DNA from: Candidatus Latescibacterota bacterium
GTDB lineage: Bacteria; Latescibacterota; UBA2968; GCA-2709665
Reading direction: 5' to 3'
DNA: 64,000 nucleotides
Assembly (NCBI GenBank): GCA_965116875.1
Contig: OZ220733.1
Location: 1,984,001 to 2,048,000, forward strand
Shown here: positions 6,518 to 54,700 of the stretch, in pieces
Layout: each line of letters starts with the position of its first letter
How positions within the stretch are numbered: position 1 is the first letter of the stretch
Program-made: the position numbers and the translations under genes
The notes under the pieces: generated by a model
The model's database searches: none
The model's input: only the letters and a program-made list of their open reading frames with translations
What the model was told of the DNA's origin: nothing

Positions 6518-6571
6518 AGCCAGTTGATGTCAAAGATATGGGATCGGCCGTGTGTCGTCAAGGTTTGGCGA

Positions 6572-7339: not shown

Positions 7340-7368
7340 GGAGTGACCGTAAACGGGGTCATAGCGGT

Positions 7369-8959: not shown

Positions 8960-9976
8960 ATGGCGGGCCTGGAAGTCGATGGGTTGCCGCGGGTTTCCAG
9001 CGACCTGGGGTTGGCGAAGTCAAATATCGAGACATACGGGTATTGTTTGCTGAAGGACGCGCTGAGCCAGGGCCAGGTTTCGGCCATGCGAGAAAGGCTG
9101 GTGGAGCAGGCGGCGGCGGAAAGGCAACTCGGCGCGGCGTAGGAAGACGGAGGACGTGACCAGAACTGGGGATCGTTCCGGGACGAAGGCGGTCGGGTGC
9201 GGCCCGAGGCGTTCACGGCTGCGCAGGGGGGCGTCAACCAGCGGCTGTGGATGTTGATCAATAAGGGACGGGTATTTCATGAGGTGTTGTTTCAGGAACG
9301 GGTCCGGGAAGTGATTGGCCACGTTCTGGGCGAGGAGTACCTGCTTTCGAGCTTTACCGCGAATATTGCCAAACCGGGCGGGGTGGAGATGGATCTGCAT
9401 ACCGACCAGTGGTGGATGCCCGCGCCCACGCGTCCAGGCCGGAAGGCATTGCCGGTGGGCTCGATCACCCGGGAGCAGTTCGACGTGGACTCTAACGAAG
9501 CATCGCCGATGATCGCACCCGCGGCAGCGGTGAACGTACTCTGGATGCTCGTCGATTTCACCCCCGGAAATGGGGCAACGCGGGTCGTTCCGGGAAGCCA
9601 CCTGTTCGGGCGGCAGCCGCACGGGACTTCCGATTTGGAGGCAGTTTCCGCGGAGGGTCCGGCCGGTACGGCCCTGATTATCGACGCGCGGATCTGGCAT
9701 GGGACCGGGGCCAACGTGACCTGCGGCGAACGGTTGGCGCTGCTCACGACCTTCTGCGGCCCGCAGTTCCGGCCCCAGGAGAATTTCACAGTGGGCACGT
9801 CGCCGGAGGTGTTGCGGGAAGCCTCTCCCGAGTTGCTGGCGCTGCTCGGGTTCAAGGTCTGGCACGCATACGGTCGCATCGAAAACCCTGCCGTGGAGTT
9901 CATTTCGCCCGGCGAGCCGTCGCTGGGAGAACTGCGTCCGGAGTCGTGCGATGGCATCCAGAGATCGGGTCGATAG
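8960..9976 (+). pseudogene. Phytanoyl-CoA dioxygenase (PhyH) family gene interrupted by one in-frame TAG (9140-9142)
   Basis: ORFs 8930-9142 and 9197-9976 share a frame; GGAGG before ATG 8960; LHTDQ, DFTPGNGATRVVPGSH and WHGTGAN motifs intact. Confidence 0.8.
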
Positions 9977-10214
9977 ACGGACCATATCAATCCATTGCAC
10001 CGGATGCCGGACGCTGCTTTACAGATACCGCAAGGGCGGTAGAGGCGGCCTGGTCAAGTGCTTCGTGGAACGCATTGTCGAGGATTTTACCCGCGGAGAC
10101 CTGAATTGTCCGGAATGCGGGCAGGCGTTTGCGCGTGAACGGGTAATAAGCGGGCGACCCGTCCACAAGATCATCCAGGGCAAGGTGTATACCCGGGGGA
10201 TGTCGAGAAAGTAA
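9951..10214 (+). CDS. Small conserved Zn-ribbon-like hypothetical protein
   Basis: CTGC...YRKGGRGGLVKC...CPECG; sits between PhyH and msrA. Confidence 0.7.
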   Translation: MASRDRVDRRTISIHCTGCRTLLYRYRKGGRGGLVKCFVERIVEDFTRGDLNCPECGQAFARERVISGRPVHKIIQGKVYTRGMSRK

Positions 10215-10233
10215 TATCAGTCAGGAGAAGAAA

Positions 10234-10773
10234 ATGGCGGAAGAACGCGCGACGTTCGGAGGGGGATGCTTCTGGTGCGTGGAGGCATTTTATCAGGACC
10301 TGTCCGGCGTGCTGGAGGTGGTCTCGGGATACGCGGGGGGATCGGTTCCGAATCCGACGTACGGGGAGGTGTGCGAAGGGACCACGGGGCATGCGGAGGT
10401 GGTACAGATCCGATTCGATCCGGAGACGGTTTCCTACAGGGACCTGCTGGACGTGTTCTGGCGCACGCACGATCCGACGACACTGAACCGGCAGGGCGCG
10501 GACGTGGGAACACAGTACCGGTCCGTCGTTTTTTATCATGACGAGAAACAACGGGCCGAGGCGACACAATCCATGGCTGAGACCGACGCGTCGGAATTGT
10601 GGAAGGATCCCATCGTGACCGAGATTTCGCCGCTGAGCGAGTTCTACAGGGCCGAGGAGTACCATCAGAACTACTATCGTTCAAATCGCGCGCAGCCCTA
10701 CTGCATCTTTGTGATCGACCCGAAGATGAAGTGGTTCAGGGATGCGTTTCAGGGACGATTGAAGACCGGGTAG
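10234..10773 (+). CDS. msrA: Peptide methionine sulfoxide reductase A
   Basis: GGGCFWC, SGYAGG, TGHAEVV, HDPTTLNRQGADVGTQYRS, AEEYHQNYY. Confidence 0.97.
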   Translation: MAEERATFGGGCFWCVEAFYQDLSGVLEVVSGYAGGSVPNPTYGEVCEGTTGHAEVVQIRFDPETVSYRDLLDVFWRTHDPTTLNRQGADVGTQYRSVVFYHDEKQRAEATQSMAETDASELWKDPIVTEISPLSEFYRAEEYHQNYYRSNRAQPYCIFVIDPKMKWFRDAFQGRLKTG

Positions 10774-10777
10774 CGGG

Positions 10778-39784: not shown

Positions 39785-42700
39785 ATGTCCGAACTCGAGG
39801 CAGGAACGGTCGTCGACGGGTGTTACGAGATCCTGGCTACAATTGGCAGCGGTGGGCTGGGTACCGTATACCGCGCGCGTGACGTAAACGATGACGCCAC
39901 GGTGGCGCTGAAGATGTTGGATATCGTGGGAGACGAGGCACAGCGGCGATTCCTCAGGGAGTTCAATATTCTCTCGAGAATTCGGCATCCCCGGTTTGTC
40001 CGGTCCCACAAATGGGGACTCCATGCCGGGAAGCCGTACTTTTCCATGGACTATATTCGCGGTCACCCCCTATCCGACCTGATCGCCAGCGCGGAAGAGC
40101 TCGAACGGCTGAGAACGGGGTGGCTCGTTCCACTCATCCGGCAGATCGGAGAGGGGATGGCTTATATCCACGAACAGGGTGTGGTGCACAGGGACCTGAA
40201 GCCAGCCAATATCATGGTTTCGCAGAATCGCGGGACGCCCGAGGTTACGATTCTGGACCTTGGCTTAGCACGTTTTCGAGATTCGAGTGGACAATGCGTG
40301 ACGCCGCCGGGTACTCCTACCGGGACCGCGGAGTACATGTCTCCCGAACAGATACGAGGACGACAGCCTGACCAGAGGTCCGATTTGTATTCGCTGGGCA
40401 TCGTCTTGTACGAGATTCTCACCGGGAAACCACCCTTCACGGCCGAGAATCCGGCTTCGGTGATGTTCCAGCATTTGAGAGACCTGCCCCCACCGCCGCG
40501 CCAGTCTAACGGCGGTGCTTCCGCCGCGATTGAAGAATCAGTCATGAAACTGCTGGAGAAAGAGCCGATCGACCGCTACGACTCGGTGTGGAGCTTGTTG
40601 CGCGATCTACCAGTAGGCAAGGACGGGAGATTCGCCAAAGAGTTCGTTTCACCACTTGCTGCGAGTCGGCCGGTGCTATTCTTGCAGCCGAAATTTACAG
40701 GGCGGGAGCGTGAGAAGAAGGCCCTCCGGGAGATCCTGAGGGAAACCGGACGCGGATTTGGGCGCATGGTCCTGGTGAGCGGTGAGGTGGGAATCGGGAA
40801 ATCCGAGTTGTTGGAGGAGTTCCGGGCCGACGCACGCGTTCACGGAATGTGCATCCTGAACGGGTGCTGCTACGAAAGCGGCACACGTGCTTATGGTCCG
40901 TTCCTGGAAGCTTTGGAGGCTCTAGCGGACAGGAGGGGTATCGACGGCTTGGATCTCGAAAGGGAGGTGGAACGTGTCCTAGCGCAGTTTGAACGGCCGA
41001 CAGACGGGAATCAGACAGATCCTTACGCTTTAATGGAGATTCTCTGTGAATTCCTTGTCGACCTGAGTCGGAAGGCCCCTACCCTTATTTTTATTGAAGA
41101 TTTACAATGGGCAGACGACTTGACCGTTCGGTTCCTGGACTTTATGAGGAGGAATCCGGACCCGGCGCCCCTAGTCTTCGGGCTTGCCTGCCGCAAAATG
41201 GACGAAGAACCGCTGCCCCCGGATATTGACCAGTTGACAGAAGGGCCGAATGTAACTGGTGTTGTACATTTGCAACTCGAGCCCCTCGATTTGGAGGAAA
41301 CAAGCAATCTTGCTGCGTCCCTTGTTGGCGAGCGGGGGGTTCCCGAGTGGGAAACCTGCAGAATTTTCCAAGAGACCGGTGGAAATCCTCTGTTTGTGGT
41401 CGAACTTATCCGCGGCTCAATTGAAGAGGGCTTGATATGGAGGGATTCGTCAGGCATATGGAGGTGGCCGGAATCTACGGAATGGCCGATGCCTCAAAGC
41501 ATTATGCAAGCCATCGGGTCGCGTCTTGGAAGTTTGCAGCCTGTCCAGAAGCATGCGCTGGAGTTTGTTTCGATATTTCGCGGCGCGATTTCGTTTGACC
41601 TGATTTCAGCGGTCTGGCACGAGAATGAACTACGGTTGTTGGAGGTTCTGGAGGTACTTGTCCGCCTGGGTCTTCTGAGAGCCCTAGAGGACCGTGAGGG
41701 ACGGTACCGGTTTTCACATGCATTGATCCAGCGAGCGGTTTACGCGGGTGCGGTGGAAGAGAAGCGACAGTTGCTTCACCTGAAGGTTGGAACGGAACTG
41801 GAGAGACGTTATGTGGCAGGCGACTCGGAGACCTTGGATGAATTGGCCTATCACTTTTCGAGATCGGACGATCTAAAAAAAATGGCGCGGTATCTGACGG
41901 CTTCCGGCCGTCTAGCGTTGCGGATGCATAATTTTTCACACGCAGTCGAACAGTTCGAAGCGGTCAATAACAATAGGGGCGTTTTCTCGTCAGATGATCA
42001 TAAGGAGATTTCCCGGGGATCCGCGATGCACCTGGAGTTTCTTTGCGCCTACGCCGAAGGCCTATCTGGATGCGGGCGGTTTGAGGACGCTCGGCACCTG
42101 TTGGATGAGGCAATGCCGTGGGTCTCAAGGCAGACCCAGGCTCAGAATGCACACGTCTTAAAGGTTCTGGGGATAAACCACATACATTTGGGGGAATATA
42201 ACAAGGCCGTGTCCGTGTTTTTGGAAGCGTTGGGAAATTTCCGAAGATTAGCTGACAAAGAGAACGAACTGGCCTTATTGGGACTATTGTCAGATGTATA
42301 CATAGCCTTAGAAGATAATGTACAGGCGATACGATATTGCCATTCTGCTGCGAAGAAATGTCGGGAAATGGGAGGAGAAATAAACGAAGCGCGGTCACTG
42401 ATGTATTTGGGATTCTCGGAAGTTTTCACATTCCATAACAGCAGGGCGAAAACACTTTTGGAATCTTCGTTGGAATTGCTGGATCAGGAGGGTGACCGAG
42501 TCTACCGATATACCAGTTTGTACTTGCTGGGGCGTATTGAGTTTAGGCTGGGCAACTTAGACAGGGCTGGAGATATATTCAAGGAACTTCAAGCGTACTG
42601 GTATAGACGCGGATCGAGCGATACTGAAGCTGAGATGCACATTCGCTTAGGTAGGGTTGACCAGGAACGGGGAGAAAAAGAGAAAGCGGAGGGGCACGCA

Positions 42701-44656
42701 CGTGCCGCGGAGCGGCTATTGACTGGTAAGAAGAGCGGGGAAGGATATTTCAGGGCCTGTTCGTTGCTCGCCGAAATTACGGCTGAAACTGGCCGCGTTA
42801 ACGAAGCGCTAGCTTGGTCCAAAAAGGCCTTGCCCGGCCTGGAGTACGGCGGGAATGTACGCGCCGTTGCCTGGGCCGCGAAGGCAAAATCGCTTGCCGC
42901 GGCTGGGCGTCACCGAGAAGTCGATAACCTCTTTGTTCATGTATCGAAGGTTCAGTGTGAGCCAAAAGGGCTAGAACAGGTATATCTGGTTCTAATTGCA
43001 GGCGAATACTACCTACGGAGGGGGCGTCTTTCCGCTGCACGGCTGACCTTGGAGGAGGCAAGAAATGCCGCCGAAAAGATGGAGATGTGCCATTATGCCC
43101 GGAAAGCAGCGGGATTACTGAAGAAGATCTTTGAGGTGGATTGTCTGATGTCGCCAACATCGGAGAGTTCCTCCTCGCTTTCGCAGGAGCACCTCCTGAC
43201 GCTTTACGAGGCTTCTGAGGACTTGACGTCGATCCTGGACCTGAACGTGCTTCTGGACCGGATTCTGGACCGCCTGAAGATGGTGAGCCGCGCCGAACGC
43301 GTGTTGATTGCTCTCAAGGATGACTCGGTAGATCAAGTGGAAGTCGCGCGACGGCATAACCTGGACGACGTGGAGACACACGAGATCAGCCGGGGAATCA
43401 TCAAATGGTCGATGGATCGAAACGAGCCGGCATTGAGCCTGGATGCTCGCACCGACGAGCGTTTCAGGCGAAGGGCGAGCGTTACGGATTACGGCATCCG
43501 TTCGGTGCTCTGCGTACCCCTACGGCACGCGGAGTCAGGCGTAATCGGCGCGCTCTATATGGATCATAGAAAGCTTGAGGATCTATTCTCCGATGAGGAT
43601 AGAGCCCTGTTTTCGGGATTTGGAAATCTGGTGTCGATTGCAGTCGTCAACGCCCGAAAGTATTCTAAGATCCAGGAGCGAACGACTTATTTGCAGAAGC
43701 GGCTTGAAGAGCGCGGACGTCTGGAAAAAATGGTAGGGGCGAGCCAAGTAATGCAGGAGGTGTTCAATCTCGTCGAGGTCGCGTCGGAAGGTGATATTAC
43801 CGTGTTGATCCAGGGCGAGACAGGAACGGGCAAGGAACTGGCTGCCAGAGCCGTCCACGCCCGAAGCGAACGCAAGTCGAAGCCTTTCCTTTCCGCGAAC
43901 TGCGCTGCAGTGACTCACGAACTCCTTCAGAGCGAATTATTCGGACACAAGAAGGGTGCGTTTACCGGGGCGTCGTCCGATCGGAAAGGATTGTTCGTTT
44001 CCGCGGACGGGGGAACGGTATTCCTGGACGAGATCGGGAATGCGTCCCCACAGTTGCAGTCGAGCCTGTTGCGCGTGCTCCAGGACGGAGAAATCCAGCG
44101 GGTGGGCGAGGCAGAGGTGCGGAACGTGGACGTGCGGGTGATCGCGGCGACGAATCGCGACCTGGAAGCGGATGTGCGCAACGGGCTGTTTCGGGAGGAC
44201 CTGTACTACAGACTGCGAGTGTTGCAGATCGAAATGCCACCCCTTCGCAGGCGTATCGAGGATATTCCATTGTTGTGTGATGATATTTTAACGCGCGTGT
44301 GTTCTAACGGGAATAAGGTCGTAGCAGGATTTACGTCCGGGGCCATCCGGGCATTGATGGACTACAATTGGCCGGGTAATGTGAGGGAGCTAGAAAACGA
44401 GATCAGGCGGGCGGTGGCGTTGGTGGAGGAAGGCGAAAACGTTTCGCCCGACTTATTCTCCGATAACATAAGGCTTATCTTACGATCAAATCCGATTGAG
44501 CAGAGTGAGTTCAAAGCACGAGTCGCTTCCTTTGAGAAACGGATGATAGTCGATGCGCTCGACCAGAGCGGGGGCAACATCACTCGTGCCGCCAGTCAAC
44601 TGGGTCTAAGTAGAAACGGACTTCAAAAGAAGATGACCCGGTATCAGCTGAGGTAA
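39785..44656 (+). CDS. Ser/Thr kinase - STAND/AAA ATPase - TPR - GAF - sigma54 activator (bEBP) - Fis HTH fusion
   Basis: IGSGGLGTVY, HRDLKPAN, DLGLAR, GTAEYMSPEQ; GEVGIGKS, IEDLQWAD, GGNPLF; GAF (SVLCVPL...GALYMD); GETGTGKE, SELFGHKKGAFTGA, FLDEIG, FREDLYYRL, WPGNVRELEN; GNITRAASQLGLSR. Confidence 0.93.
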   Translation: MSELEAGTVVDGCYEILATIGSGGLGTVYRARDVNDDATVALKMLDIVGDEAQRRFLREFNILSRIRHPRFVRSHKWGLHAGKPYFSMDYIRGHPLSDLIASAEELERLRTGWLVPLIRQIGEGMAYIHEQGVVHRDLKPANIMVSQNRGTPEVTILDLGLARFRDSSGQCVTPPGTPTGTAEYMSPEQIRGRQPDQRSDLYSLGIVLYEILTGKPPFTAENPASVMFQHLRDLPPPPRQSNGGASAAIEESVMKLLEKEPIDRYDSVWSLLRDLPVGKDGRFAKEFVSPLAASRPVLFLQPKFTGREREKKALREILRETGRGFGRMVLVSGEVGIGKSELLEEFRADARVHGMCILNGCCYESGTRAYGPFLEALEALADRRGIDGLDLEREVERVLAQFERPTDGNQTDPYALMEILCEFLVDLSRKAPTLIFIEDLQWADDLTVRFLDFMRRNPDPAPLVFGLACRKMDEEPLPPDIDQLTEGPNVTGVVHLQLEPLDLEETSNLAASLVGERGVPEWETCRIFQETGGNPLFVVELIRGSIEEGLIWRDSSGIWRWPESTEWPMPQSIMQAIGSRLGSLQPVQKHALEFVSIFRGAISFDLISAVWHENELRLLEVLEVLVRLGLLRALEDREGRYRFSHALIQRAVYAGAVEEKRQLLHLKVGTELERRYVAGDSETLDELAYHFSRSDDLKKMARYLTASGRLALRMHNFSHAVEQFEAVNNNRGVFSSDDHKEISRGSAMHLEFLCAYAEGLSGCGRFEDARHLLDEAMPWVSRQTQAQNAHVLKVLGINHIHLGEYNKAVSVFLEALGNFRRLADKENELALLGLLSDVYIALEDNVQAIRYCHSAAKKCREMGGEINEARSLMYLGFSEVFTFHNSRAKTLLESSLELLDQEGDRVYRYTSLYLLGRIEFRLGNLDRAGDIFKELQAYWYRRGSSDTEAEMHIRLGRVDQERGEKEKAEGHARAAERLLTGKKSGEGYFRACSLLAEITAETGRVNEALAWSKKALPGLEYGGNVRAVAWAAKAKSLAAAGRHREVDNLFVHVSKVQCEPKGLEQVYLVLIAGEYYLRRGRLSAARLTLEEARNAAEKMEMCHYARKAAGLLKKIFEVDCLMSPTSESSSSLSQEHLLTLYEASEDLTSILDLNVLLDRILDRLKMVSRAERVLIALKDDSVDQVEVARRHNLDDVETHEISRGIIKWSMDRNEPALSLDARTDERFRRRASVTDYGIRSVLCVPLRHAESGVIGALYMDHRKLEDLFSDEDRALFSGFGNLVSIAVVNARKYSKIQERTTYLQKRLEERGRLEKMVGASQVMQEVFNLVEVASEGDITVLIQGETGTGKELAARAVHARSERKSKPFLSANCAAVTHELLQSELFGHKKGAFTGASSDRKGLFVSADGGTVFLDEIGNASPQLQSSLLRVLQDGEIQRVGEAEVRNVDVRVIAATNRDLEADVRNGLFREDLYYRLRVLQIEMPPLRRRIEDIPLLCDDILTRVCSNGNKVVAGFTSGAIRALMDYNWPGNVRELENEIRRAVALVEEGENVSPDLFSDNIRLILRSNPIEQSEFKARVASFEKRMIVDALDQSGGNITRAASQLGLSRNGLQKKMTRYQLR

Positions 44657-44708
44657 ATCATGGATACAATAAGAGGTTTACTGTAGATGGTGTGCGGGTT
44701 GACACGGT

Positions 44709-44750
44709 CGGTGACGTCGACGATGTTGTCACCGTTTTAACCGTTTGATA
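44709..44750. promoter_or_regulatory. Candidate bEBP upstream activator sequence plus IHF site
   Basis: CGGTGAC-N12-GTCACCG dyad (44709-44734); minus-strand TATCAAACGGTTA (44738-44750) matches WATCAANNNNTTR. Confidence 0.55.
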
Positions 44751-44919
44751 TTTAAAAATATATAAGCGTCAAAAGGGTTAAATCGATAGCGTGCATCGGT
44801 GATATGTATACATTGTATACGCTACTCAGATAATTGATTCTATATAACAGAACAACGACAACCGCTATATTTGCTTGATTTATCGCGTCTGTGTGCAAAC
44901 ACAGGCGTTTTTTCTGTTT

Positions 44920-44935
44920 TGGTACGAAGTTTGCG
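44920..44935 (+). promoter_or_regulatory. sigma54 -24/-12 promoter
   Basis: TGGTACG-AAGT-TTGCG with exact GG-N10-GC spacing, directly downstream of a bEBP gene. Confidence 0.8.
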
Positions 44936-45030
44936 TTGAAAAACTAGCGCAAATATACGATTGCCTTTTGCTATTAGCCGTATACACGTCCGAAAGCAAG
45001 TATATCCAACCCACTCAATCGAGGCCAACA

Positions 45031-45225
45031 TTGAAACGAGATCAAACCGATCATTTGCTGTTCTCAATCAACGCGGAAATTGACAGGACTGGAAGAATCC
45101 AGGGTTGTTTTGCATCGCCGACTCCGATTGAAGATCACGTCTGTGGATGGCCACGTTTTCCCATATTACCCCCGCCGATGACAACAGAAGCAACTCTTGA
45201 AGCTCACACTAGGTTGTCTGTCTGA
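45031..45225 (+). CDS. Putative RiPP precursor peptide, 64 aa (TTG start)
   Basis: GAGG 6 nt before TTG; MKRDQTDHLLFSINAEIDRTGRIQGCFASPTPIEDHVCGWPRFPILPPP...; first ORF after the sigma54 promoter, 39 nt before the radical SAM gene. Confidence 0.6.
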   Translation: MKRDQTDHLLFSINAEIDRTGRIQGCFASPTPIEDHVCGWPRFPILPPPMTTEATLEAHTRLSV

Positions 45226-45264
45226 AGAGTGAGCTAGTCCGATTATTTCGATCGACATTGAAGG

Positions 45265-46752
45265 ATGCTAGAATTGATGAAGATCACAAGATCGGAAATA
45301 CATCTATTCAGGACGCGCGCAAACGCGCGTGCGATTGCCTTTCAGGTTAACACCGGGCTATTTTTTGGGTTAAGCGAGCTTAGCGAGTCGGTTTTGAGAA
45401 AGTCTCAGGTGTTTTCGGACGGAACTGTAGCAGTCGAGCTAGGTCGTGAAATTGATCGAAGAGAGGTGCTGAATGCGATCGGTGTACTTTGTAAAGTAGG
45501 GCTAATTAATGTTGGGTGCGACGGACTGCATCAGATATGTATACCGAGCGATACAGGGGTTTGTACAAACCAAGAGTCTGCTGGGAAGGCAGATCAATTT
45601 CATATAACGCTTCACGTCGCGCACACGTGCAATGTCAAGTGTGCATATTGCTTTGCTCACGGCGGGGATTATGGCGGTTCGCCAAGACTAATGCGGCCCG
45701 ATGTCGCACGGCAAGCTGTGCGTTGGGCTTTACAGGAGGCAAAGTCATTCCAGAGATGCCAGATTGACTTCTTTGGTGGTGAGCCACTGCTTAATTTCAA
45801 ACTGATTCGAGAAATTATCCCTTACGCCCGCGAGCATGCCGATTTGGTTGGCATTGCCGTATCATTTGGAATTGCAACAAACGGCACTGTGATGTCGCCG
45901 GAGATACTTGAGTTTCTGATCGATCAGGAAGTACAGATTCAAGTAAGCATCGATGGCACCGTGAAAGATCAAAACCGACTTCGTAAGTTTCACGACGGAA
46001 GCGATACATACGATGTCGTTGCTGAAAACGTGACGAAGTTGATGGATAGATCGCCTGATAGTGTATCTGTCCGTGCAACAATGACGTCCTACAACGTGGA
46101 CCGGGAGTCCATCGTGAACGGTTTGGCTCAATTTGGCGCATCCCGCGTGGAAGTAGCTCCGGTTGTGGCTGCGCCTCACGAGCCTTTTGCGTTTCGAGAG
46201 GAACATCTCCCTGCAATAAAGCAGAAACTCTGCGAGCTAAGCAGGTATGAGACGGAAAAAATCCTTGAAGGATCGAAGGACCGAGGGTTTTTCGACGATT
46301 ACATGGAGAGGTTAATGACACGTGCGAAATCTTGTTATGGCTGTCAAGGTGGACGCACATTTTTCGCGGTGGACGTTGATGGAGACATCTATTTTTGCTC
46401 AAGTCTTGCCGATCGGCCGGAGTTTAAGATGGGCGATGTTTTCTCTGGTCTTGACAAAAATGTCCAGAATGGATTCAAAGATTCGTTCCATATCGATTCC
46501 CGTTCCGACTGCCGGCGGTGCTGGGCAAGAAACCTGTGCGGAGGGGGATGTATATATGATGCCCGAACTGCAACAGGGGACCCAATAAAGCCGAACCCTG
46601 TCTCCTGCGAGCAGATCCGTTACAGCTATGAACTCGCCATGGAAATGTGTATGGAGATTCAGAGCGCAAACGAGACTTTGTTGCACGAGAGATACAATCT
46701 AACGTGGGTTGATGCAGACGGCGAATCGTGGGACGACGATTCTGTCAAATGA
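45265..46752 (+). CDS. RRE-radical SAM-SPASM peptide maturase (QhpD/PapB/SCIFF-maturase-like)
   Basis: N-terminal RRE-like HLF...FQVNTGLFFGL; CNVKCAYC; FFGGEPLLN; SIDG; CYGCQGG...VDVDGDIYFC; CRRCWARNLCGGGC...C. Confidence 0.92.
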   Translation: MLELMKITRSEIHLFRTRANARAIAFQVNTGLFFGLSELSESVLRKSQVFSDGTVAVELGREIDRREVLNAIGVLCKVGLINVGCDGLHQICIPSDTGVCTNQESAGKADQFHITLHVAHTCNVKCAYCFAHGGDYGGSPRLMRPDVARQAVRWALQEAKSFQRCQIDFFGGEPLLNFKLIREIIPYAREHADLVGIAVSFGIATNGTVMSPEILEFLIDQEVQIQVSIDGTVKDQNRLRKFHDGSDTYDVVAENVTKLMDRSPDSVSVRATMTSYNVDRESIVNGLAQFGASRVEVAPVVAAPHEPFAFREEHLPAIKQKLCELSRYETEKILEGSKDRGFFDDYMERLMTRAKSCYGCQGGRTFFAVDVDGDIYFCSSLADRPEFKMGDVFSGLDKNVQNGFKDSFHIDSRSDCRRCWARNLCGGGCIYDARTATGDPIKPNPVSCEQIRYSYELAMEMCMEIQSANETLLHERYNLTWVDADGESWDDDSVK

Positions 46753-46878
46753 CGAATCGAAGGGCCGATTGACCGTGGCTTTTTGACCGATAGATGCCCG
46801 CTCTCGTTGAGAACACGTCGTTTCCATCATGAAAACGGGTCATGGCTCTTGCGGGAACAATCCCGGAAATTTACGAAA

Positions 46879-47457
46879 ATGGCAATTGGGTTTCGTTGGT
46901 CATGGATTCCAAACGGTACTGTCGTCCTTCTGATATTCGTAAACGTGACTCTCGCGGCAATAGTGACATCACGACATTTCGAACTGAAACGACTTCAAGA
47001 AGAAGAACAAAACAGTCTACATGAGAATTTCCCGCCACTGAAAAGGACCCAAGTCAGTTCGTACCTTAATCAGCTGTTTCCAGGTTCTGTGGAATTTGAT
47101 CATGCGACCTTTGGGAAAACGATAAAATATCGGGTTTATGACCAAACAACACTGCTTGGAAATGCCTATCAAGTCCGAGAAGATATCCATTGCCCGGTCT
47201 GCAGGGATGTAAGGTTTTTCATTGGTGTGGATATTGACAACATTATTTCTGGTATTGTTCTGGTTAACCCATTCCACTTCTATGGCGAACCCCTAAAAGC
47301 CGAAATTGTAGATGAATTTCTCGGTCAGTTTCTCAATAGGCAAGTTAGTGATCAATTGCACCTTGGCAGTAACATTCACGGAATAACCGGGGCAACCAAG
47401 ACGGTTGAGCATTTTCTGGACGGAGTCGTTGGAATTCAAAAATTACATTTCGAATAG
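46879..47457 (+). CDS. Membrane-anchored FMN-binding (flavinylation substrate) protein with CxxC
   Basis: N-terminal TM; HCPVC; FLGQF; HGITGATKT fits the [S/T]GA[S/T] flavinylation motif. Confidence 0.75.
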   Translation: MAIGFRWSWIPNGTVVLLIFVNVTLAAIVTSRHFELKRLQEEEQNSLHENFPPLKRTQVSSYLNQLFPGSVEFDHATFGKTIKYRVYDQTTLLGNAYQVREDIHCPVCRDVRFFIGVDIDNIISGIVLVNPFHFYGEPLKAEIVDEFLGQFLNRQVSDQLHLGSNIHGITGATKTVEHFLDGVVGIQKLHFE

Positions 47458-47462
47458 ATACA

Positions 47463-48080
47463 ATGTTGAAAAAGAAAAAGTTGTACTGGGTGATGGCAGT
47501 TCCAATATTGGTGTTAAGTGCCATCCAGTTAGCGACAACCGTTGATGATCTGGGACAAGAAATCACTAATGCCAAACTAATCCGAGATCGTGGCAAACGA
47601 ATTGAGGAATTCTTCACTGAATCAGTTCCAATTGGGTCAATAGCGCCGTCCTTTCAGTTACGGTCCGTCAAAGGAAAATTGGTTTCGTTTGATCCTAGTG
47701 CATCGAGATTTTCCTTACTTATTTTCTTTAATCCAACGGACTGTTCATGGTGTCTGCTTGAGTCGTCGCTCTGGCGGGAAATCGATTCCATCTACGACGA
47801 AGATCAACTAACCATCCTTGGTATTACAACCGAGGAAGGCCTCAAAGATCGAGATGTCGTGCTTTTTTCCAAAGGGAGAGAGTTGAATTTCCCAATTCTC
47901 CGATGTGAAGATAGTGAACTCATTAAGGCATATGGAATTACCCATACACCAACTCGGATCCTTGTCGACGACTCAGGACGAATTCTGGATGCTGGTTCCT
48001 CTACTCATAGTACTCAACGGCACACGAAGTTTAAAGAGAAGATCGCGCTCTTGTTGCGTCGAGAATTGAACACTCCCTAG
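47463..48080 (+). CDS. Membrane-anchored redoxin (AhpC/TSA/TlpA-like thioredoxin fold)
   Basis: IGSIAPSFQLRSVKG, IFFNPTDCSWC, YGITHTPTRILVD..GRI. Confidence 0.82.
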   Translation: MLKKKKLYWVMAVPILVLSAIQLATTVDDLGQEITNAKLIRDRGKRIEEFFTESVPIGSIAPSFQLRSVKGKLVSFDPSASRFSLLIFFNPTDCSWCLLESSLWREIDSIYDEDQLTILGITTEEGLKDRDVVLFSKGRELNFPILRCEDSELIKAYGITHTPTRILVDDSGRILDAGSSTHSTQRHTKFKEKIALLLRRELNTP

Positions 48081-48156
48081 CTTGAGCAAGCACTCAAATG
48101 ACGCGCCATGTCCAAAACCGTAACGTTCGTTTCATTCACTCACAACGGAGGTTGTC

Positions 48157-48387
48157 ATGAATCGAGTCTACGTAGTTGTTCGAGGGCTCCTGTTTATCGC
48201 AATTGTATTTTCCTGCTTTACGCAGGCAACCGCGGAAGACTGCGACCCAGAAGTAAATGTATCTGGATGCCAAGGTCCGAACATGGTAATCCAAGCGTTT
48301 GATTGTTGGTCGTCGGATTGCAACTTTCAGGACGAGGACGGAGATTGTTACTATTGTTGTGATGTCGAAACAGGGGAGTGTTTTTAA
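48157..48387 (+). CDS. Secreted Cys/Asp-rich peptide, 76 aa
   Basis: GGGAGG RBS; signal peptide ending A-T-A; 50-aa mature part with 8 Cys, 13 Asp/Glu and no Lys/Arg. Confidence 0.8.
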   Translation: MNRVYVVVRGLLFIAIVFSCFTQATAEDCDPEVNVSGCQGPNMVIQAFDCWSSDCNFQDEDGDCYYCCDVETGECF

Positions 48388-48462
48388 TATCGTTTAGTTG
48401 CCCAATCAACTTCCTCGTCTTTGGACATGGCGCGTTTTCTAACAGTGAGGCTAGTTTGTAGA

Positions 48463-49518
48463 ATGAGAATCGGTGGGTTAAGAAATCTTCCGTTGAGTTT
48501 GTCTCTGATCATCGGTTGTGGGAACCAGGGTGCAAAGCCTTTGTGGATAGAAACAAATACCATGGAGTTGAAGCAGCAACTCACTATTGGGACTAGCGAC
48601 ATAAAAAGGAACGAATACGTCTTCGGGAACGTATCGGACATTAAATGCGATACCGATGGGGATATTTACATTGCCGATGCTGGATTGTTTCGCATTCAGA
48701 AATACTCGTCGAATGGGACCTTCGAAAGGTCCTTTGGAATGGGTAATGGCCGAGAGCCAGGGCAGTTTATGCGATTGATGCATATCGATGTAGACAAAAG
48801 CAAGGACGTATATGCAACAGACTACGCATTGCGCAGAATTACTGTTTTCGATTCTATCGGGATAGTGAAGAATACGATACGAGTCCGTATGAAACCGGCA
48901 CAGATCATCGTCGGACAGAAAGGTTCGATATACATAATTGGAAATCCGATGTCGTATACTGGACCGCTCATACATATGCTCAATTTGCACGGCACATTTG
49001 TGAAGAGCTTTTGTAAGCGTGACGGAATACCGGATTTAGCACTCAAATCGGGAAACTTCGGGTGGTTAGCAACCGACAACGATGGCAACATATACTATAC
49101 ACTTACATATCCGATCGAAATTAGGAAATTCACTGAGGATGGGGATTTATTGGCACGATTCACCCGCCCCGTCCCATTTTTGTCGCCGCCAATCGTGGTT
49201 CGGGCCAAAGGTGGAATGAAAAAAGTCTGGATGGGGAGCGGGTCCATGAATCTCTTCGCACTTCCAGATGGAAAGTTGGTACACCTCATCTACCACCGTG
49301 ATAGAAACAAGCCAGAAATGTATCCAAGATTGTATTTCGACATTTTCTCTCGAAGAGGTGAATGGCTTCTCTGTGTTCCATTGTCGCGCTTAGGATTGCG
49401 GAAATACGGTACGTTAGGTACGGACTTACGTGGTGGTCTTTATGTCAATCACAGAACTCCGTACTCCCGGGTAACGAAGTACTCACTTACTTTCCCAGAC
49501 AATGTTCAAGATTACTGA
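48463..49518 (+). CDS. 6-bladed beta-propeller (NHL-like) lipoprotein
   Basis: Lipobox-like LIIGC; FGNVSDI..D.DGDIYIAD...RIQKYS..GTFERSFG.G.G.EPGQF. Confidence 0.8.
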   Translation: MRIGGLRNLPLSLSLIIGCGNQGAKPLWIETNTMELKQQLTIGTSDIKRNEYVFGNVSDIKCDTDGDIYIADAGLFRIQKYSSNGTFERSFGMGNGREPGQFMRLMHIDVDKSKDVYATDYALRRITVFDSIGIVKNTIRVRMKPAQIIVGQKGSIYIIGNPMSYTGPLIHMLNLHGTFVKSFCKRDGIPDLALKSGNFGWLATDNDGNIYYTLTYPIEIRKFTEDGDLLARFTRPVPFLSPPIVVRAKGGMKKVWMGSGSMNLFALPDGKLVHLIYHRDRNKPEMYPRLYFDIFSRRGEWLLCVPLSRLGLRKYGTLGTDLRGGLYVNHRTPYSRVTKYSLTFPDNVQDY

Positions 49519-49545
49519 CTTCATTACATATTTCATTTGTTAAAG

Positions 49546-50601
49546 ATGGCGAAGAAAACGCAACGAGCAATCGCTAGGACCGATAATACCTGCTTGGCAC
49601 ATGGTCGATTGATCTATATTATGATGTCGTGTTTCTGCATCTGCTTATCGGCCGAAGTTCTGGCTGATGAAATCAGAAGAACGCGCATAATGATGGGAAC
49701 GTCGGTTTCAATAACGATTGATCAAAACTCTTACGAAACGACTGCAGCAATTGACATTGCTTTCCGGGAAATCGCAAGAATCGAACAAATCTTGAGTACG
49801 TATGTTTCCGATAGCCATATTTCAAAGTTAAATCGACTAGGTCGCCTTTCATATCCCCCTATCGAACTACACGATGTAATTTCCCGAGGACTCTACTTCG
49901 GTTTGATTTCTGACGGAGCCTTTGATATTACGATCAAGCCGGTTCTGGACCTATATCGAGAATGTATTCGCACAAAACAACGCCCACCAACGGCTATTGA
50001 ACTTGCTGTAACCACTGCCTTGGTCAACTATCGCAATGTTGCAGTGCATGGAGATTGTATCCAAATACAAAGACGAGGCACTCAAATCACTACCGACGGC
50101 ATCGCAAAGGGATACATAATCGACCGAGCAATTGCGGTTCTTGAGCGGAACGGCGTCGAATCTGCGCTTATAAATATTGGAGGAGACGCTCGCGCGATGG
50201 GCAGGAGATCGAATGGGTTGCCATGGATCATTGCACTACAAAATCCACGAGACCAAGAAGTAAATTTAGCAATTATTCCTCTACAAGATAAGGCTGTAGC
50301 GACTTCAGGAGACTATGAGCGGTACTTTGTACCTGAGAAAACGATACACCATATTGTCGATCCTCGCACGGGTCATTCGGCAACATCATTGATAAGTTCA
50401 ACGGTGATTGCGAAGACAGCCATCGACGCTGATGCCTTGGCGACAACTGTATTTGTGATGGGTCCGGAAAAGGGAATGTCTTTGGTGGAGAGTATTAATG
50501 ACGTCGAGGCACTTGTTGTTACCCGGGGATTTAGGGTGCTGAAATCAAGTGGTCTCACGTTGTTGACTGAGTCATTCAAAAATCCAATCACGCAAGATTA
50601 A
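49546..50601 (+). CDS. apbE: FAD:protein FMN transferase
   Basis: MMGTSVSI, SDGAFDITI, GIAKGYIID, INIGGD, ATSGDYERYF, HHIVDPRTG, ADALATTVFVMG. Confidence 0.93.
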   Translation: MAKKTQRAIARTDNTCLAHGRLIYIMMSCFCICLSAEVLADEIRRTRIMMGTSVSITIDQNSYETTAAIDIAFREIARIEQILSTYVSDSHISKLNRLGRLSYPPIELHDVISRGLYFGLISDGAFDITIKPVLDLYRECIRTKQRPPTAIELAVTTALVNYRNVAVHGDCIQIQRRGTQITTDGIAKGYIIDRAIAVLERNGVESALINIGGDARAMGRRSNGLPWIIALQNPRDQEVNLAIIPLQDKAVATSGDYERYFVPEKTIHHIVDPRTGHSATSLISSTVIAKTAIDADALATTVFVMGPEKGMSLVESINDVEALVVTRGFRVLKSSGLTLLTESFKNPITQD

Positions 50602-50721
50602 CGAGAAATTCAACTATACCGGTCAATGTCATTTGAATGCAGTGTGGGCTCAACATCCCGGGTTATGCTAAGTGGCGTAAATCTAATTTCAGGTTTCGTT
50701 TCTGGCGGATATATTAGGACG

Positions 50722-51756
50722 ATGAAACGCATTTCAACCGTCGTGATTGTCTTGGTGCTGACGATATTTGGCAAGGGTAAGCTGTTGGAGGCGCAGTCCT
50801 CCAACAATGCGGATTTCGATGCCAATGGCATTGTCGAGTTCGGTGATTTCATTCTGTTAGCGCAGGCTTTCGGGACAAATGAAACACGTTTCGACCTTGA
50901 CGGCAGTGGAAAGGTGGATTTTCCCGATTTCATCCTTTTCGCAAAGCGATTTGGCGAGGGCGCGCCGAGAAGGGACATAAGTGTCACGCTTCCAGGTGGC
51001 GCGAAGCTGGATATGCGTTGGATCCATTCTGGGGTATTTCTGATGGGTTCGCCCGTTTCAGAGCCAGATCGCAATGACGACGAGGGTCCTCAGCATCAGG
51101 TGACGATTACAAAGGGGTTTTATCTGGGAAGGTACGAGGTCACACAGCAGCAGTGGGAGAGCGTGATGAATACGCGTCCGTGGCATCGGCGAGGGGAATC
51201 CCAGGATCCTAGGAGAGTGAACTTCCCGGCCTCATATATGGGTTGGGAGGATGTTGAGAATTTCATACGCAAATTGAACGAAATGGAGGGTAAACAGGTT
51301 TATCGATTGCCCACAGAGGCGGAATGGGAATACGCGTGCAGGGCCGGGACCACGACGCCCTGGTCGTTCGGAGACGACTCGACTCGGGTCGGTGACTTCG
51401 CACGTTACTATGAGAACTCTCGGTCAGTAATCGTCTTGGCCGACGGTCGTACGGTTTATGGTAGTCGAGAAGCCCAGGAAACAGGAGGCGTGTTTCCTAA
51501 TCCGTGGGGTCTGTACGATATGCACGGAAATGTCGCCGAATGGGTTCAGGACTACTTGGGACCGTACACGGCACAGCCTAAGTTCGATCCGAAAGGGCCC
51601 GACAAGCCCAGTGGAGATGGACCTCCGGAATACAATCATGTCGTAAGAGGAGGAACTTATTTGGACTATGGGCAGGCATTACGGTCGGCTGCTCGTTGGC
51701 GAGGTTGGGCGGGGAGCATTCGCATAGGATTTCGACTGTTGAGAGAACACAGATAG
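50722..51756 (+). CDS. Secreted dockerin/EF-hand-like plus FGE-sulfatase (C-type lectin fold) protein
   Basis: Signal peptide; ADFDANGIVEFGDF / FDLDGSGKVDFPDF; FLMGS, YEVTQQQW, RLPTEAEWEYACRAG, NPWGLYDMHGNVAEW, RGG...RSA.R...IGFR. Confidence 0.88.
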   Translation: MKRISTVVIVLVLTIFGKGKLLEAQSSNNADFDANGIVEFGDFILLAQAFGTNETRFDLDGSGKVDFPDFILFAKRFGEGAPRRDISVTLPGGAKLDMRWIHSGVFLMGSPVSEPDRNDDEGPQHQVTITKGFYLGRYEVTQQQWESVMNTRPWHRRGESQDPRRVNFPASYMGWEDVENFIRKLNEMEGKQVYRLPTEAEWEYACRAGTTTPWSFGDDSTRVGDFARYYENSRSVIVLADGRTVYGSREAQETGGVFPNPWGLYDMHGNVAEWVQDYLGPYTAQPKFDPKGPDKPSGDGPPEYNHVVRGGTYLDYGQALRSAARWRGWAGSIRIGFRLLREHR

Positions 51757-51794: not shown

Positions 51795-54700
51795 ATGTAT
51801 GAGGCTTGGAGTTCTGAACTTCAAGTCCGTATTTTTGTGTCATGTACCCTGATCAGATTGATGTCAAATACGCAAGTGATCCCTTTTATGCTGAACGGAA
51901 AACGAACCAACGAATTAGGCGTTCCGGTTTGGGCCGTGTTTTGCATTGTGGCACCTTTCTGGTCCACACAAATTCGTTCAATGGAGACTCGCTTCGTGAA
52001 ATCTCCCATTGGAGCGATTCGCGCAAGTGCCATCCAACGCGGCGAGCGGCGGGCGTTGCTGACCGAGATATGGCTGTCCCGATACGGCGGCGCCAGTCGC
52101 GAAAGGATCAGGACCTACCCGGGCGCGGCGGGCTCGCTCGGATTCCTGCCGGATGGCAGCGCGATCGTCTATCTGGAACGCGGCCTCAGATATCCCGCCT
52201 TCGGGTCGTACCTCTCGGGCGGCCGCAGCCTGCCGATCGTGAAGAATCGGATCTGGGAATTGGCGGTCGACGGATCGGACGAGTCCCGCTGGCCGCTTCC
52301 ACCTGAGCTCAATCCATTGGACCTTGCCGTTTCGCCTGACGGCGATTTTCTCGCGGTACGTGGCGAGTGGGACGCATTGGTGGACTCGGGTCAACCGGGG
52401 CTCTGGAGGGTCGACCGAACGGGACAGGCAAAACAACTCCGGATCGGCAGGACAGCCGGCGCCCCGCGCTGGTCCGGAGACGGCGCCAAAGTCTATTTCG
52501 CCGAGGGCGATACGACGTCGATGGAAGTAAAGTTCGTGCACGTGGAGACCGGAGAGGTGGGTACTGAAACTGCTTCCGACAAAGCCGCCGGCGTTCGCGT
52601 CACTGCTGAGACCCCGCGCTCCAAATTCGAACCCACTCCCGATGCTCGCGAACAGAGTCCCCTGCAAAGAGCCCTGGTCGAGTTGCAGAGAGGATTGAGC
52701 CGGTACAGCCGGATGAACTCGGCCGTGCACCGGGCGGACCGTCACAGAGAAAAGGACGCGCGAAAGGCCGTTGAACGGATGTTTGCGGGGTTCCACAAAC
52801 ATTACAAGGCCCTCCGGATCTCGAAAGCAAGCTGCCTTGCTTACGTGGCGGCGCTGCGCGAACAGCAACTCAGAACCGCTGCCGCCGCGGGGGAACACAC
52901 CTGCCTGGAACACATGCTCGTGTTGAACGACCTGGCAGGGCGCTACGCCGAAAAACACGGCGCCCTTCCAACTGAACACGGTATTCTGTTCGGGTGGTTG
53001 AAACAGAAAGTCGATCTGCATGCGACCGGGGAAGCGGAACTCAGGCGGGACAGGGAAGTCCTGGACATTGTCTTCAGTTGCCCGGCAACTTCCGATTCGG
53101 AGCCGTTGATCGAACATCTCTACAGGCCGGATGCCGCGCCCGGCATGCCAATCCTGGCGTGTTTCAGGCACCCGGACCGGTATCTCCACCTGACGGAAAC
53201 GCCGGATGCACGAAGCCTCGAGGCGGTGGAGATGCGTTCTGAGACGGTCGACTCCCTCTTCGCGGTTGTGGTGCAGCGAACCGGAGAGGACCGGTTGCTG
53301 GAGGCGGCCGCCCTCTTCCAGCTCGTCGCCGTTCAGCGCCCGAAGGACGCGCCTCTCCACATCGAACTCGGCCACGCGTACTACAGGGCGAAAGACTACA
53401 AGCGCGCGATGTGGGCCTTCAAGAAAGCGATCTCTCTACAGGGAGGCGCCAGGGCCTATTACGGCGTGGGTCTGGTCTACGCGGAGATTCCGAAGGAACG
53501 CAACCTGGCCATCCACTATTTCCAGGAGGCCCTCGCCCGGGACCACGGGTACGTGGACGCCCGATATCAGATCGCAAGGCTGCGATACCTGATGAATGAG
53601 TACGACGTGGGCCGTGCGGTCGACCGCGTACTGGAGCTCGACCCGAACTACGCTGACGCCTATCGCCTGATGGGCGAGTGGTACGCCGATTTCTGGAAGG
53701 ACTACGAACAGGCCATTGTCTGGTACACCCGATATATGGCGCTGAGACCCGGCGATTCCAGCCTGCGCAGCCGGCTGGGCGTCGCGTATCTGATGATCGA
53801 AGACTACGAGAAAATCATGGCGAAACTGCTGGGTTTCGTCGAAGAGAACCCCGATGCGATTGAACTCATGCCGATCGTTGCGCAAGCATCCATGAAGCAG
53901 GGAAAGCCGGATATGGCGATGGAGTTCTTCGAGGACTACGTAGCAAAACTCCCGTCTCATGAGCGGGTTTTGTATGAGGACATCCGCCTGGTTTCGTCGT
54001 TAGAGGAACTCGGCGAATTCAACAATACTCCGGAGGCTGAACGCGCCGCTTTCCTGAAACGGTTCTGGAACGACCGGGATCCGGATCTCTCCACGCCTGT
54101 AAACGAACGTTTGCTGGAGCACTACCGCCGCGTCTGGCACGCACTCACCGAGTTTTCGGAAAACAAACAGCCGTGGGACGTGAGGGGCGAAGTCTACGTA
54201 CGTTTCGGAGAACCGGACCACCGCTCCAGGTCCGACCGGCCCAACTACAAACAAAGCCTGGCCGTGCAGCGGGTCAAGGAACGCCTTGCCGCGAACATCT
54301 ACGGCGCCGACGGCATGGGTGAGTCGTTTATGGGTCCCGTCTTTCCGGTTCGCGGCATGCGACGACTGGAGGGTGAATGGTACGAGTTTCGAGAAGCCGA
54401 GACTCCGGGAATTCGTGGGGGTGACGCGGGATCGCCCGGCGAAAGCGGAGGGTCCGCGGGCGGGGATGAGTACTCCGGAGGGGGTGGAGGGTTTGGCGGA
54501 CACGTACCGGTCGCGGACGTTATGGATACCGTGAGGCTTGGTCTCATGGATATGGACAAGCGCCTCGGCTTTGGAGACTATCACCCGGTCACGTCCGGTG
54601 AAGACAGAGGGACGATCCCATGGGAGACGTGGATCTACACCGACGTGGGCGGTGGCATTGAAATCACGTTCACGGACGAATTCGGCGCCGGAACCTATGA

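Follow-up and report, generated by a model that had tools for sequence, protein, structure and literature searches.

Within a 64,000-nucleotide stretch of contig OZ220733.1 of a Candidatus Latescibacterota bacterium (positions 1,984,001 to 2,048,000 in assembly GCA_965116875.1; hereafter the window), two gene cassettes adjoin on the + strand. Cassette A (39785-46752) comprises a giant regulator, a short peptide and a radical S-adenosylmethionine (rSAM) enzyme of the SPASM type, and cassette B (46876-50601) comprises a putative flavin mononucleotide (FMN)-binding protein, a redoxin, a secreted Cys-rich peptide, a beta-propeller lipoprotein and the flavin transferase ApbE. On balance we favour the view that both belong to one sigma54-driven unit, in which cassette A would be a thioether-type system resembling those of ribosomally synthesised peptides with post-translational modifications (RiPPs) and cassette B a self-contained oxidative flavin/dithiol system. 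Because the large majority of members of both families occur apart, their coupling is read as a facultative co-location and not as one obligate pathway.

The nine elements listed in the original prediction (the eight genes just named and a sigma54 promoter) were all found among the open reading frames (ORFs) and signals of the + strand, at the positions given in Table 1, and their individual assignments held. The lower G+C content claimed for the block was likewise borne out, being 0.467 in 44657-51756 and 0.576 in the remaining window. Intergenic gaps within the block measure 5-123 nt, the G+C content is low throughout, and in a consensus scan the only extragenic terminator-like hairpins were the two that flank the unit. 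Since the gaps are short, the hairpins lie only at the flanks and the G+C content is uniformly low, the block is probably a single sigma54-driven transcription unit composed of two separable cassettes.

Table 1. Features of the block and its immediate flanks, with positions in the window
Feature	Position	Strand	Basis or remark
Regulator, 1623 aa: Ser/Thr kinase, STAND ATPase (AAA_16), TPR, GAF, sigma54-activator AAA+, Fis-type helix-turn-helix (HTH)	39785..44656	+	Pfam
Terminator-like hairpin, 10 pairs and T-run	44885..44908	+	between regulator gene and promoter; pattern match only
Sigma54-type promoter GG-N10-GC, TGGTACGAAGTTTGCG	44920..44935	+	111 nt upstream of precursor start
Putative precursor peptide, 64 aa	45031..45225	+	TTG start, GAGG ending 6 nt upstream
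rSAM-SPASM peptide maturase with putative RiPP recognition element (RRE), 495 aa	45265..46752	+	database copy starts at 45277
Membrane-anchored RnfG-like, putatively FMN-binding protein, 193 aa, CPVC and ITGATKT	46876..47457	+	AlphaFold2 (AF2) fold, motifs
Membrane-anchored thioredoxin-fold redoxin (AhpC/TSA, ResA/TlpA-like), CSWC at residue 94	47463..48080	+	Pfam
Secreted Cys-rich acidic peptide, 76 aa	48157..48387	+	26-aa signal-like N-terminus and 50-aa mature part
Six-bladed NHL beta-propeller lipoprotein, lipobox L-I-I-G-C	48421..49518	+	AF2/Foldseek
ApbE FAD:protein FMN transferase, signal-like N-terminus	49537..50601	+	PF02424 3.9e-79, 266.3 bits (cut-off 25.6)
FGE-sulfatase (SUMF1/PvdO-like) domain protein, dockerin/EF-hand-like N-terminal part	50626..51756	+	PF03781 1.1e-40
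Terminator-like hairpin, 11 pairs and T-run	51803..51827	+	likely unit end; pattern match only

The regulator at the head of cassette A gave Pfam matches to Pkinase (1e-47), AAA_16 (6e-29), TPR_12, GAF (5e-14), Sigma54_activat (PF00158, 1.2e-68) and HTH_8 (1e-13), and a homologue of it lies directly upstream of the rSAM gene at each related locus that has upstream sequence. The sigma54 pattern was not enriched in the window alone, where 14 matches with at most 2 mismatches compared with 24.6 expected. Of the 28 related loci, 27 have an element with at most 2 mismatches to TGGCACG-N4-TTGCA at 59-124 nt upstream of the peptide, as does L004 (loci are denoted by L numbers and genomes by G numbers, G000 being the genome of the window); an equal match occurred in 37 of 2000 random 130-nt windows drawn from those loci. 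This mismatch-tolerant test with its control was used in place of a strict regular expression, which had matched 15 of the 28 loci. The genome also has an rpoN gene (PF04552, 1.2e-59), so that an enhancer-binding protein with a Sigma54_activat domain, a GG-N10-GC promoter and the sigma factor are all predicted from the sequence. The kinase-STAND-GAF regulator would activate the promoter in front of the precursor gene.

A small ORF homologous to the 64-aa peptide occupies the interval between the regulator and the rSAM gene at all 29 loci with upstream sequence (the window locus, L004, L005-L027 and L029-L032; L028, which starts inside the rSAM gene, was excluded). These peptides share a leader motif, L-x-x-I-N-[GA]-x-x-D-x-x-G-x-I, and a core in which one Cys (Cys38) is invariant. 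A Pro-rich stretch comes after this residue, and most members also have an acidic tail rich in D. In an alignment of 28 sequences, which omitted the divergent L027 peptide (included in another peptide alignment), the invariant positions were M1, N14, G21, C38, P44 and P49. The peptide of the window carries 2 Cys, of which just one is invariant. It matched no Pfam or NCBIfam family.

A model of the complex between the rSAM enzyme and this peptide had a median score of 0.74 in three runs, and the best of 3 controls scored 0.00. Among 80 solved complexes 58 attained that mark, as did 2 among 110 mismatched pairs. The runs shared at least 51% of contacts, and the pLDDT (predicted local distance difference test) of the partner was at least 50. 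In the model, leader residues 8-15 contact enzyme residues 27-36 and 66-74, and core residues 32-40, Cys38 included, lie at enzyme residues 344-362 and 422-425, near the SPASM part. Because of the synteny, the leader conservation and the modelled leader fit, we conclude that the 64-aa ORF encodes a genuine precursor and, as modelled, the substrate of the rSAM enzyme. Its conserved leader would dock on the putative N-terminal RRE, and the enzyme would modify the core around the single invariant Cys38. Two points weigh against this picture of the cassette. Likeness to solved RRE-leader complexes may partly account for the high score of the model, and the core of the 28 aligned sequences contained no invariant acidic or other acceptor residue and no invariant Trp.

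The rSAM enzyme itself matched Radical_SAM (PF04055) at 6e-15, with 56.2 bits over a cut-off of 29.5, while its SPASM match (PF13186, 19.1 bits) fell below the cut-off of 21.5. Ten cysteines were invariant in 16 members (C118, C122, C125, C356, C374, C412, C415, C421, C425 and C444), which gives both the CX3CX2C motif and the full SPASM cysteine set of the radical SAM/SPASM enzymes. The RRE domain PF05402 was undetected in the protein of the window at E<=0.01; several homologues, P0015, P0017 and P0019 among them, carry this annotation. The best NCBIfam models were those of the SCIFF (TIGR03974, 254.4 bits), nif11 (248), PapB (NF047865, 243.4) and QhpD (TIGR03906, 233.8) maturases, and each score lies below its cut-off (425, 518.7, 340 and 453 bits, respectively). 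Neither of the first and third of these families can claim the enzyme on the evidence of its substrate either: the precursor lacks the six-Cys-in-45 pattern of SCIFF, and no invariant acidic residue is found near the Cys, whereas the precursors of the PapB family carry repeated Cys-X3-Asp/Glu motifs.

The enzyme belongs instead to a clade of its own. About 60 protein clusters share at least 37% identity with it, after which identity drops to SCIFF maturases at about 32-35%; where named, the clusters are from Gemmatimonadota or Latescibacteria. A scan with one genome per species gave 28 family loci (L005-L032), all in metagenome-assembled genomes (MAGs) of Latescibacterota or Gemmatimonadota and often 2-3 per genome; L033-L077, with at most 34% identity or partial sequences, were not counted. 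Judged from these sequences, cassette A appears to represent a RiPP-like family that is confined to Latescibacterota and Gemmatimonadota.

Like the SCIFF (ScfB/CteB), PapB, QhpD and Nif11 maturases, the enzyme combines a putative N-terminal peptide-binding domain, a CX3CX2C core and full SPASM cysteines, and in all these systems a precursor with a conserved Cys is encoded directly upstream. It differs from them in scoring below each cut-off and in forming a separate clade (at least 37% identity within it, about 33% outside). The precursor, with its single invariant Cys, Pro-rich core and mostly acidic tail, shows neither the six-Cys nor the CX3D/E pattern of the SCIFF and PapB systems, and the constant pairing with a giant kinase-STAND-GAF regulator and a sigma54 promoter also sets the family apart from known thioether maturases. 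Since its nearest relatives, the SCIFF, PapB, QhpD and Nif11 maturases, make thioethers, an intramolecular thioether at Cys38 would, by analogy, be the most likely product of cassette A.

The likeness to QhpD raises the question of whether the whole block might encode an enzyme similar to quinohemoprotein amine dehydrogenase, with the rSAM enzyme as QhpD, a Cys/Trp peptide as gamma subunit, the propeller as beta subunit and the flavoprotein in place of the haem subunit. The QhpD model does align with residues 17-475 of the enzyme, and at the paralogous locus, L004, there are in addition an S8 protease and an ATP-binding cassette (ABC) exporter, reminiscent of QhpE and QhpF. However, the score is little more than half the cut-off for QhpD, the precursor, with its single invariant Cys, lacks any invariant Trp or acidic acceptor, no protein of the block contains a CxxCH haem motif, and the propeller is of the six-bladed NHL type and is missing at most rSAM loci. 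For these reasons we rejected this explanation, which appears highly improbable.

Genes downstream of the rSAM gene vary between loci. The paralogous cassette A in the genome of the window (L004, G000:C1:257000-276000, minus strand) encodes a 1628-aa regulator, a 72-aa precursor and an rSAM enzyme 70% identical to that of the window; downstream lie a DUF5128 propeller, a small 3-Cys ORF, a CQPC redoxin, the ABC exporter, a rhodanese, a fusion of the S8 protease with DUF1611, an acyl carrier protein and a Kelch lipoprotein. A second genome has a near-identical orthologue of this locus, L005. Elsewhere the genes behind the rSAM gene encode a stand-alone sigma54 activator and a UvrD-like helicase (about 10 loci), a 300-aa protein without family and an AraC-type response regulator (about 8 loci), or a second rSAM enzyme and a glycosyltransferase (four loci). 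In the helicase subgroup (L009, L010, L013, L014, L021-L024, L026 and L032, at about 11.5-16 kb in the locus) the activator has about 335 aa, with AAA+ and HTH_8 but no sensor domain, and the UvrD-helicase-domain protein about 1090 aa.

The central protein of cassette B is the putative flavin carrier. Its AF2 model (pLDDT 83.6, from an alignment of 10 homologues) has an N-terminal helix at residues 9-50, and in a Foldseek search RnfG chains were the only three matches below E 0.001 (3.9e-7, 2.4e-6 and 2.6e-4). In the 10 sequences CPxC and G[IV][TS]GATK are invariant or nearly so. As modelled, the protein would resemble RnfG and NqrC in its single N-terminal membrane helix, its FMN_bind fold and its [S/T]GA[S/T] motif near the C-terminus; the CPxC lies just upstream of the stretch aligned to RnfG, which starts after it, and unlike in Rnf and Nqr no other Rnf or Nqr subunit genes adjoin. 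The Pfam model PF04205 (FMN_bind) matched one homologue, P0124, and at E 0.011 a homologue from the second module described below. Neighbours in the ESM Atlas carry FMN_bind with a score of 0.89, which is a lead only, and 107 pattern matches to the alignment arose in a metagenome scan of the Joint Genome Institute (JGI), none of them confirmed. Against assignment to this fold, the protein of the window has no PF04205 match at E<=0.01, and a profile search of PDB sequences placed the motif opposite AITGATIT of RnfG without reaching significance (E 0.12).

ApbE attaches FMN to [S/T]GA[S/T] motifs of extracytosolic proteins, as described in the available part of Meheust et al. 2021 (PMC8238504). 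The genome of the window has just two ApbE genes, both inside modules with such an FMN protein, and PF04205 has no match anywhere in it. Given this knowledge of ApbE, the placement of both genes and the lack of any other detectable FMN_bind protein, the threonine of the TGAT motif is the predicted site at which ApbE would attach FMN to the membrane-anchored RnfG-like protein. ApbE was found in 141 of the 168 genomes of the phylum set, so its presence in all 28 genomes with the FMN protein says little.

The redoxin matched AhpC-TSA (1.3e-9, 38.5 bits, cut-off 26) and Redoxin (6.5e-7, 29.7 bits, cut-off 26.6), and its match to the NCBIfam model ResA (5.6e-13) stayed below the cut-off. The 76-aa peptide that follows has no Pfam or NCBIfam family; its 50 mature residues contain 8 Cys and 13 D+E and no K or R, and six Cys columns are invariant in 4 homologues encoded at the corresponding place of the module in 4 genomes. 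The propeller is a structural assignment: the AF2 model (pLDDT 79.3, predicted template modelling score 0.80) had NHL domains as top Foldseek matches (E 1e-15 to 1e-12, target-normalised TM-scores 0.53-0.77) and shows the six blades of that type. Sequence profiles (DUF5128 and ScyF-NHL) were weak and below their cut-offs. Further Foldseek matches, at E of about 1e-10, were PAL and virginiamycin B lyase, which are NHL-type enzymes that act on peptides.

Close homologues of the FMN protein are rare, with 9 clusters among 5.8 billion proteins; of the 167 further genomes from the phylum, 3 gave a match (G054, G142 and G144). In G054, which is the same genome as G001, the FMN protein, redoxin, Cys-rich signal peptide, propeller and ApbE follow in the same order about 8 kb downstream of an rSAM gene. 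The ApbE gene at this site (L081, G001:C15) is split by an opposite-strand, 548-aa transposase-like ORF at 6209-7855, its pieces lying at 5871-6200 and within 7235-8722. G142 and G144 have the first four genes of cassette B without rSAM or ApbE within about 10 kb. The exact order FMN protein, redoxin, peptide with a 6-Cys scaffold and propeller accordingly recurs in 4 genomes.

A second, complete flavin/thiol module lies at about 3.55 Mb in the genome of the window (L116, G000:C1:3540000-3558000, minus strand, 3245-12259), with no rSAM gene nearby. It encodes an AraC-type response regulator, a propeller, ApbE, an FMN protein with CSTC and SGAT, two redoxins, an A24-like membrane protein, a 97-aa Cys-rich peptide and a MacB-like permease. 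A search of the 168 genomes with the FMN protein of this module gave matches at about 47 places in 27 of them. We scored 46 FMN-protein loci in all, including 40 of these places; L183, which holds only a fragment of the FMN-protein gene, was excluded. A redoxin gene lay on the same strand within 3 kb at 40 of the 46, a Cys-rich signal-bearing ORF passing a strict filter within 7 kb at 32, and an A24-like gene nearby at 30 (the strict filter misses the window locus, L116 and L147, in each of which a looser scan found the peptide). A propeller was found nearby at 8 loci and ApbE at 4, all of these in genus g1. A family rSAM gene within 10.5 kb occurred at 2, with L081 as a third case whose rSAM gene, 8-9 kb upstream, falls just outside the fetched stretch. 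From these counts the conserved core of cassette B is a CxxC-bearing FMN protein, at least one redoxin and at least one Cys-rich peptide, and the rSAM enzyme lies outside it.

Families of Cys-rich peptides of 85-120 aa, often in 2-3 copies near FMN-protein, redoxin and A24-like genes, were seen at L148 (14154-15140), L180 (11410-17420), L151, L155-L157, L166 and L182. Their N-terminal part is highly conserved (an S-G step, a Pro/Arg/Gly stretch and a hydrophobic helix), and their ends are variable, with 6-10 Cys. The N-termini of peptides of this second-module type were reminiscent of Flp prepilin leaders. Pfam gave no support: none of 5 peptides matched a Flp family, and the A24-like protein reached 26.3 bits against a cut-off of 26.5 for PF01478. 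The likeness is noted here as an observation.

The original prediction had proposed a chain outside the cytoplasm from flavin to dithiol to Cys-rich peptide, and the conserved gene neighbourhood supports this idea. A flavin carrier with an invariant CxxC, its dedicated CxxC redoxin and a secreted peptide with many Cys together suggest a relay in which a flavin/dithiol centre (FMN and CPxC) would exchange electrons with the redoxin, which in turn would act on the peptide. In the sulfhydryl oxidases QSOX, Erv and Ero1 electrons pass from substrate thiols to a thioredoxin-fold CxxC, a flavin-proximal CxxC, the flavin and finally an oxidant. By the same logic, electrons in cassette B could run from peptide thiols through the redoxin and CPxC to FMN and on to O2 or a quinone. 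The comparison concerns the proposed electron path only; there is no relation in sequence or fold to QSOX, Erv or Ero1, and the predicted cofactor is FMN attached covalently by ApbE and not flavin adenine dinucleotide (FAD). Our best guess is that cassette B is a QSOX-like flavin-to-dithiol relay that would fold disulfide-rich peptides.

The direction of the flow deserves comment. No membrane partner for electron input was found among the ORFs of the window, L081, L113, L114 and L116, and neither DsbB nor VKOR was found in the genome of the window. Across the phylum set, DsbB occurs in 20 and VKOR in 21 of 168 genomes; one or the other is present in none of the 28 genomes with the FMN protein as compared with 39 of the 140 others, according to a comparison of lists. 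Within genus g25, 17 genomes have the FMN protein and 4 have DsbB, and none has both. The missing input partner, the absence of DsbB and VKOR from the genome and this non-overlap across genomes favour the oxidative direction. Several observations speak against it, or at least weaken it. As many as 101 of the 168 genomes lack DsbB, VKOR and the FMN protein alike, so that lack of DsbB or VKOR is common in the phylum, and the genomes compared are related and therefore not independent. The module redoxins of G144 (L113, 10490-11086) and G142 (L112, 9473-10057) read CPAG, with the second Cys lost, which fits a simple dithiol relay less well.

Alternatively cassette B might be a reductive or general electron conduit, with the Cys-rich protein as a redox carrier similar to DUF4266 or as a metal-binding factor. 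Such a role could be argued from the clusters with proposed electron transfer from DsbD in the accessible part of Meheust et al. 2021 (PMC8238504), and from the one DsbD_TM gene of the genome (G000:C1:1968881), about 15 kb upstream of the window. In the modules read (the window, L081, L113, L114 and L116), however, no DsbD, NapH-like, PepSY-like or Rnf/Nqr membrane partner is present. The Cys-rich peptides match neither DUF4266 nor another Pfam family, and they vary strongly in sequence and number, with up to three in tandem (L148 and L180), a variability more in keeping with products or substrates than with a redox carrier of fixed type. We therefore regard a reductive or conduit function as distinctly improbable and retain the oxidative relay. 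A bolder proposal, which we hold tentatively and with more doubt than conviction, is that the CPxC RnfG-like protein, flavinylated by ApbE, might add a third kind to the bacterial proteins that generate disulfides de novo, working by QSOX/Erv logic on the FMN_bind scaffold and replacing DsbB or VKOR in Latescibacterota. It would serve dedicated redoxins by which families of hypervariable secreted peptides rich in disulfides are folded, and in a few lineages a new RiPP of thioether type would have brought it under its sigma54 switch.

It might be expected from the arrangement in the window that both cassettes act in one pathway, as had been predicted: the peptide crosslinked by the rSAM enzyme would be exported and then matured or used by the flavin, redoxin and propeller proteins, or the 8-Cys peptide would be a second rSAM substrate. 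The cassettes are close to each other on the same strand behind one conserved sigma54 promoter, and they meet at three sites on the same strand, namely in the window, at L029/L081 (one genus with the window) and at L012, which is L149 (another family); we infer that two further metagenome contigs probably carry an rSAM gene together with an FMN-protein gene, since the contigs behind P0003 and P0124, and those behind P0008 and P0122, match in length (the two lengths being 5497 and 15755). If a genome of about 5.5 Mb has 1-4 FMN-protein loci, fewer than 0.5 co-locations would by our own rough estimate be expected by chance among 30 rSAM loci. Behind the paralogous rSAM gene at L004/L005 there are likewise a redoxin and a DUF5128 propeller, and behind that at L011 a redoxin. 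All this speaks against mere juxtaposition, and since the co-locations exceed the rough chance estimate, co-regulation or a looser functional link may exist in some lineages. The joint sites L029 (18136-20765) and L012 (15788-18171) moreover share, downstream of the rSAM gene, a sub-block of GT4 glycosyltransferase, FMN protein and redoxin, although they come from different families and their FMN proteins are of different module types.

The counts over both families nevertheless argue the other way. Among the 30 rSAM loci, fetched to about 10 kb downstream where the contig allows, the FMN-protein gene is present at 3 (the window, L029 and L012) and absent within the fetched stretch at 27, a matching redoxin is present at 6 and absent at 24, and the 8-Cys type of peptide is present at 2, the window and L029 as extended by L081. 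Conversely, 43 of the 46 FMN-protein loci have no family rSAM gene nearby, including the complete second module in the genome of the window. The 8-Cys peptide has a signal-like N-terminus and no leader motif of the kind modelled on the putative RRE, and the sites in the window and at L029 may count as one event because they belong to one genus. A single integrated pathway thus finds partial support in the three joint sites and is opposed by the separate occurrence of most members of both families, and we consider it unlikely. The original prediction had also stated that it would fall if related rSAM loci lacked the flavinylation and redoxin genes and both peptides; the modules are indeed mostly missing, but the 64-aa peptide is kept at every locus with upstream sequence. 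With the cassettes joined in few lineages only, the simplest reading of the junction is shared regulation, in which cassette B would have come under the control of cassette A's sigma54 switch with no biosynthetic dependence between the two.

Both cassettes have parallels in the literature, and we conclude that they are uncharacterised variants on known themes. In the part of Meheust et al. 2021 available (PMC8238504), hybrid flavinylation/thioredoxin-like clusters are described that unite ApbE, a flavinylated DUF3570 protein, a protein resembling thioredoxin and a small CXC protein that is secreted (DUF4266), and that may or may not include DsbD. Cassette B likewise joins ApbE, an extracytosolic protein (here putatively flavinylated), a thioredoxin-fold protein and a small secreted Cys protein. 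It differs from the clusters of that account in its flavin carrier, which is RnfG-like with its own invariant CPxC and not DUF3570, in a small protein with 6-10 Cys and no Pfam family, and in the addition of an NHL propeller or, in the second module type, an A24-like peptidase; DsbD, DUF3570 and DUF4266 had no Pfam match on the proteins of the block.

No description of cassette A or B was found in the literature searched, although the supplements of PMC8238504, outside the search, may list clusters similar to B. The search returned no paper linking Latescibacteria, radical SAM and RiPP, and nothing related for an FMN-binding domain combined with CXXC, ApbE and a thiol-disulfide oxidoreductase; among the matches listed, no paper on ranthipeptides or SPASM enzymes mentioned sigma-54. 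In the portion of PMC11334425 available, the words thioredoxin, disulfide, CXXC and cysteine do not occur. The srp RiPP preprint, in its accessible part, concerns NHLP/YcaO peptides and is unrelated. PMC12993501 lists, in the part available and with no detail there, antiSMASH clusters of the types 'ranthipeptide' and 'RRE' in MAGs of sponge Latescibacterota, so automated pipelines may already flag cassette A.

Cassette A would add a phylum-restricted RiPP family with a one-Cys, proline-rich precursor and a strictly linked kinase-STAND-GAF/sigma54 switch, the latter being a rare and well-defined regulatory handle for an uncultured group. If our reading of cassette B is true, ApbE flavinylation would extend from electron transport to thiol-disulfide chemistry and would offer an answer to how disulfides form in secreted peptides of bacteria without DsbB or VKOR. 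As a cluster of 'RiPP plus flavinylation' the block is a mosaic, and cluster boundaries drawn by proximity only would mislead genome mining.

One further gene belongs to the same run. The FGE-sulfatase (formylglycine-generating enzyme) domain gene begins 24 nt past ApbE, and the tightly packed, low-G+C run extends through it to the second hairpin; it is probably the last gene of the transcription unit. A role as conserved partner was discarded, since a tblastn search with it gave no match in L004-L033, L081 and L112-L115, the loci on which the query was run (L116 and L147-L186 lay outside its scope).

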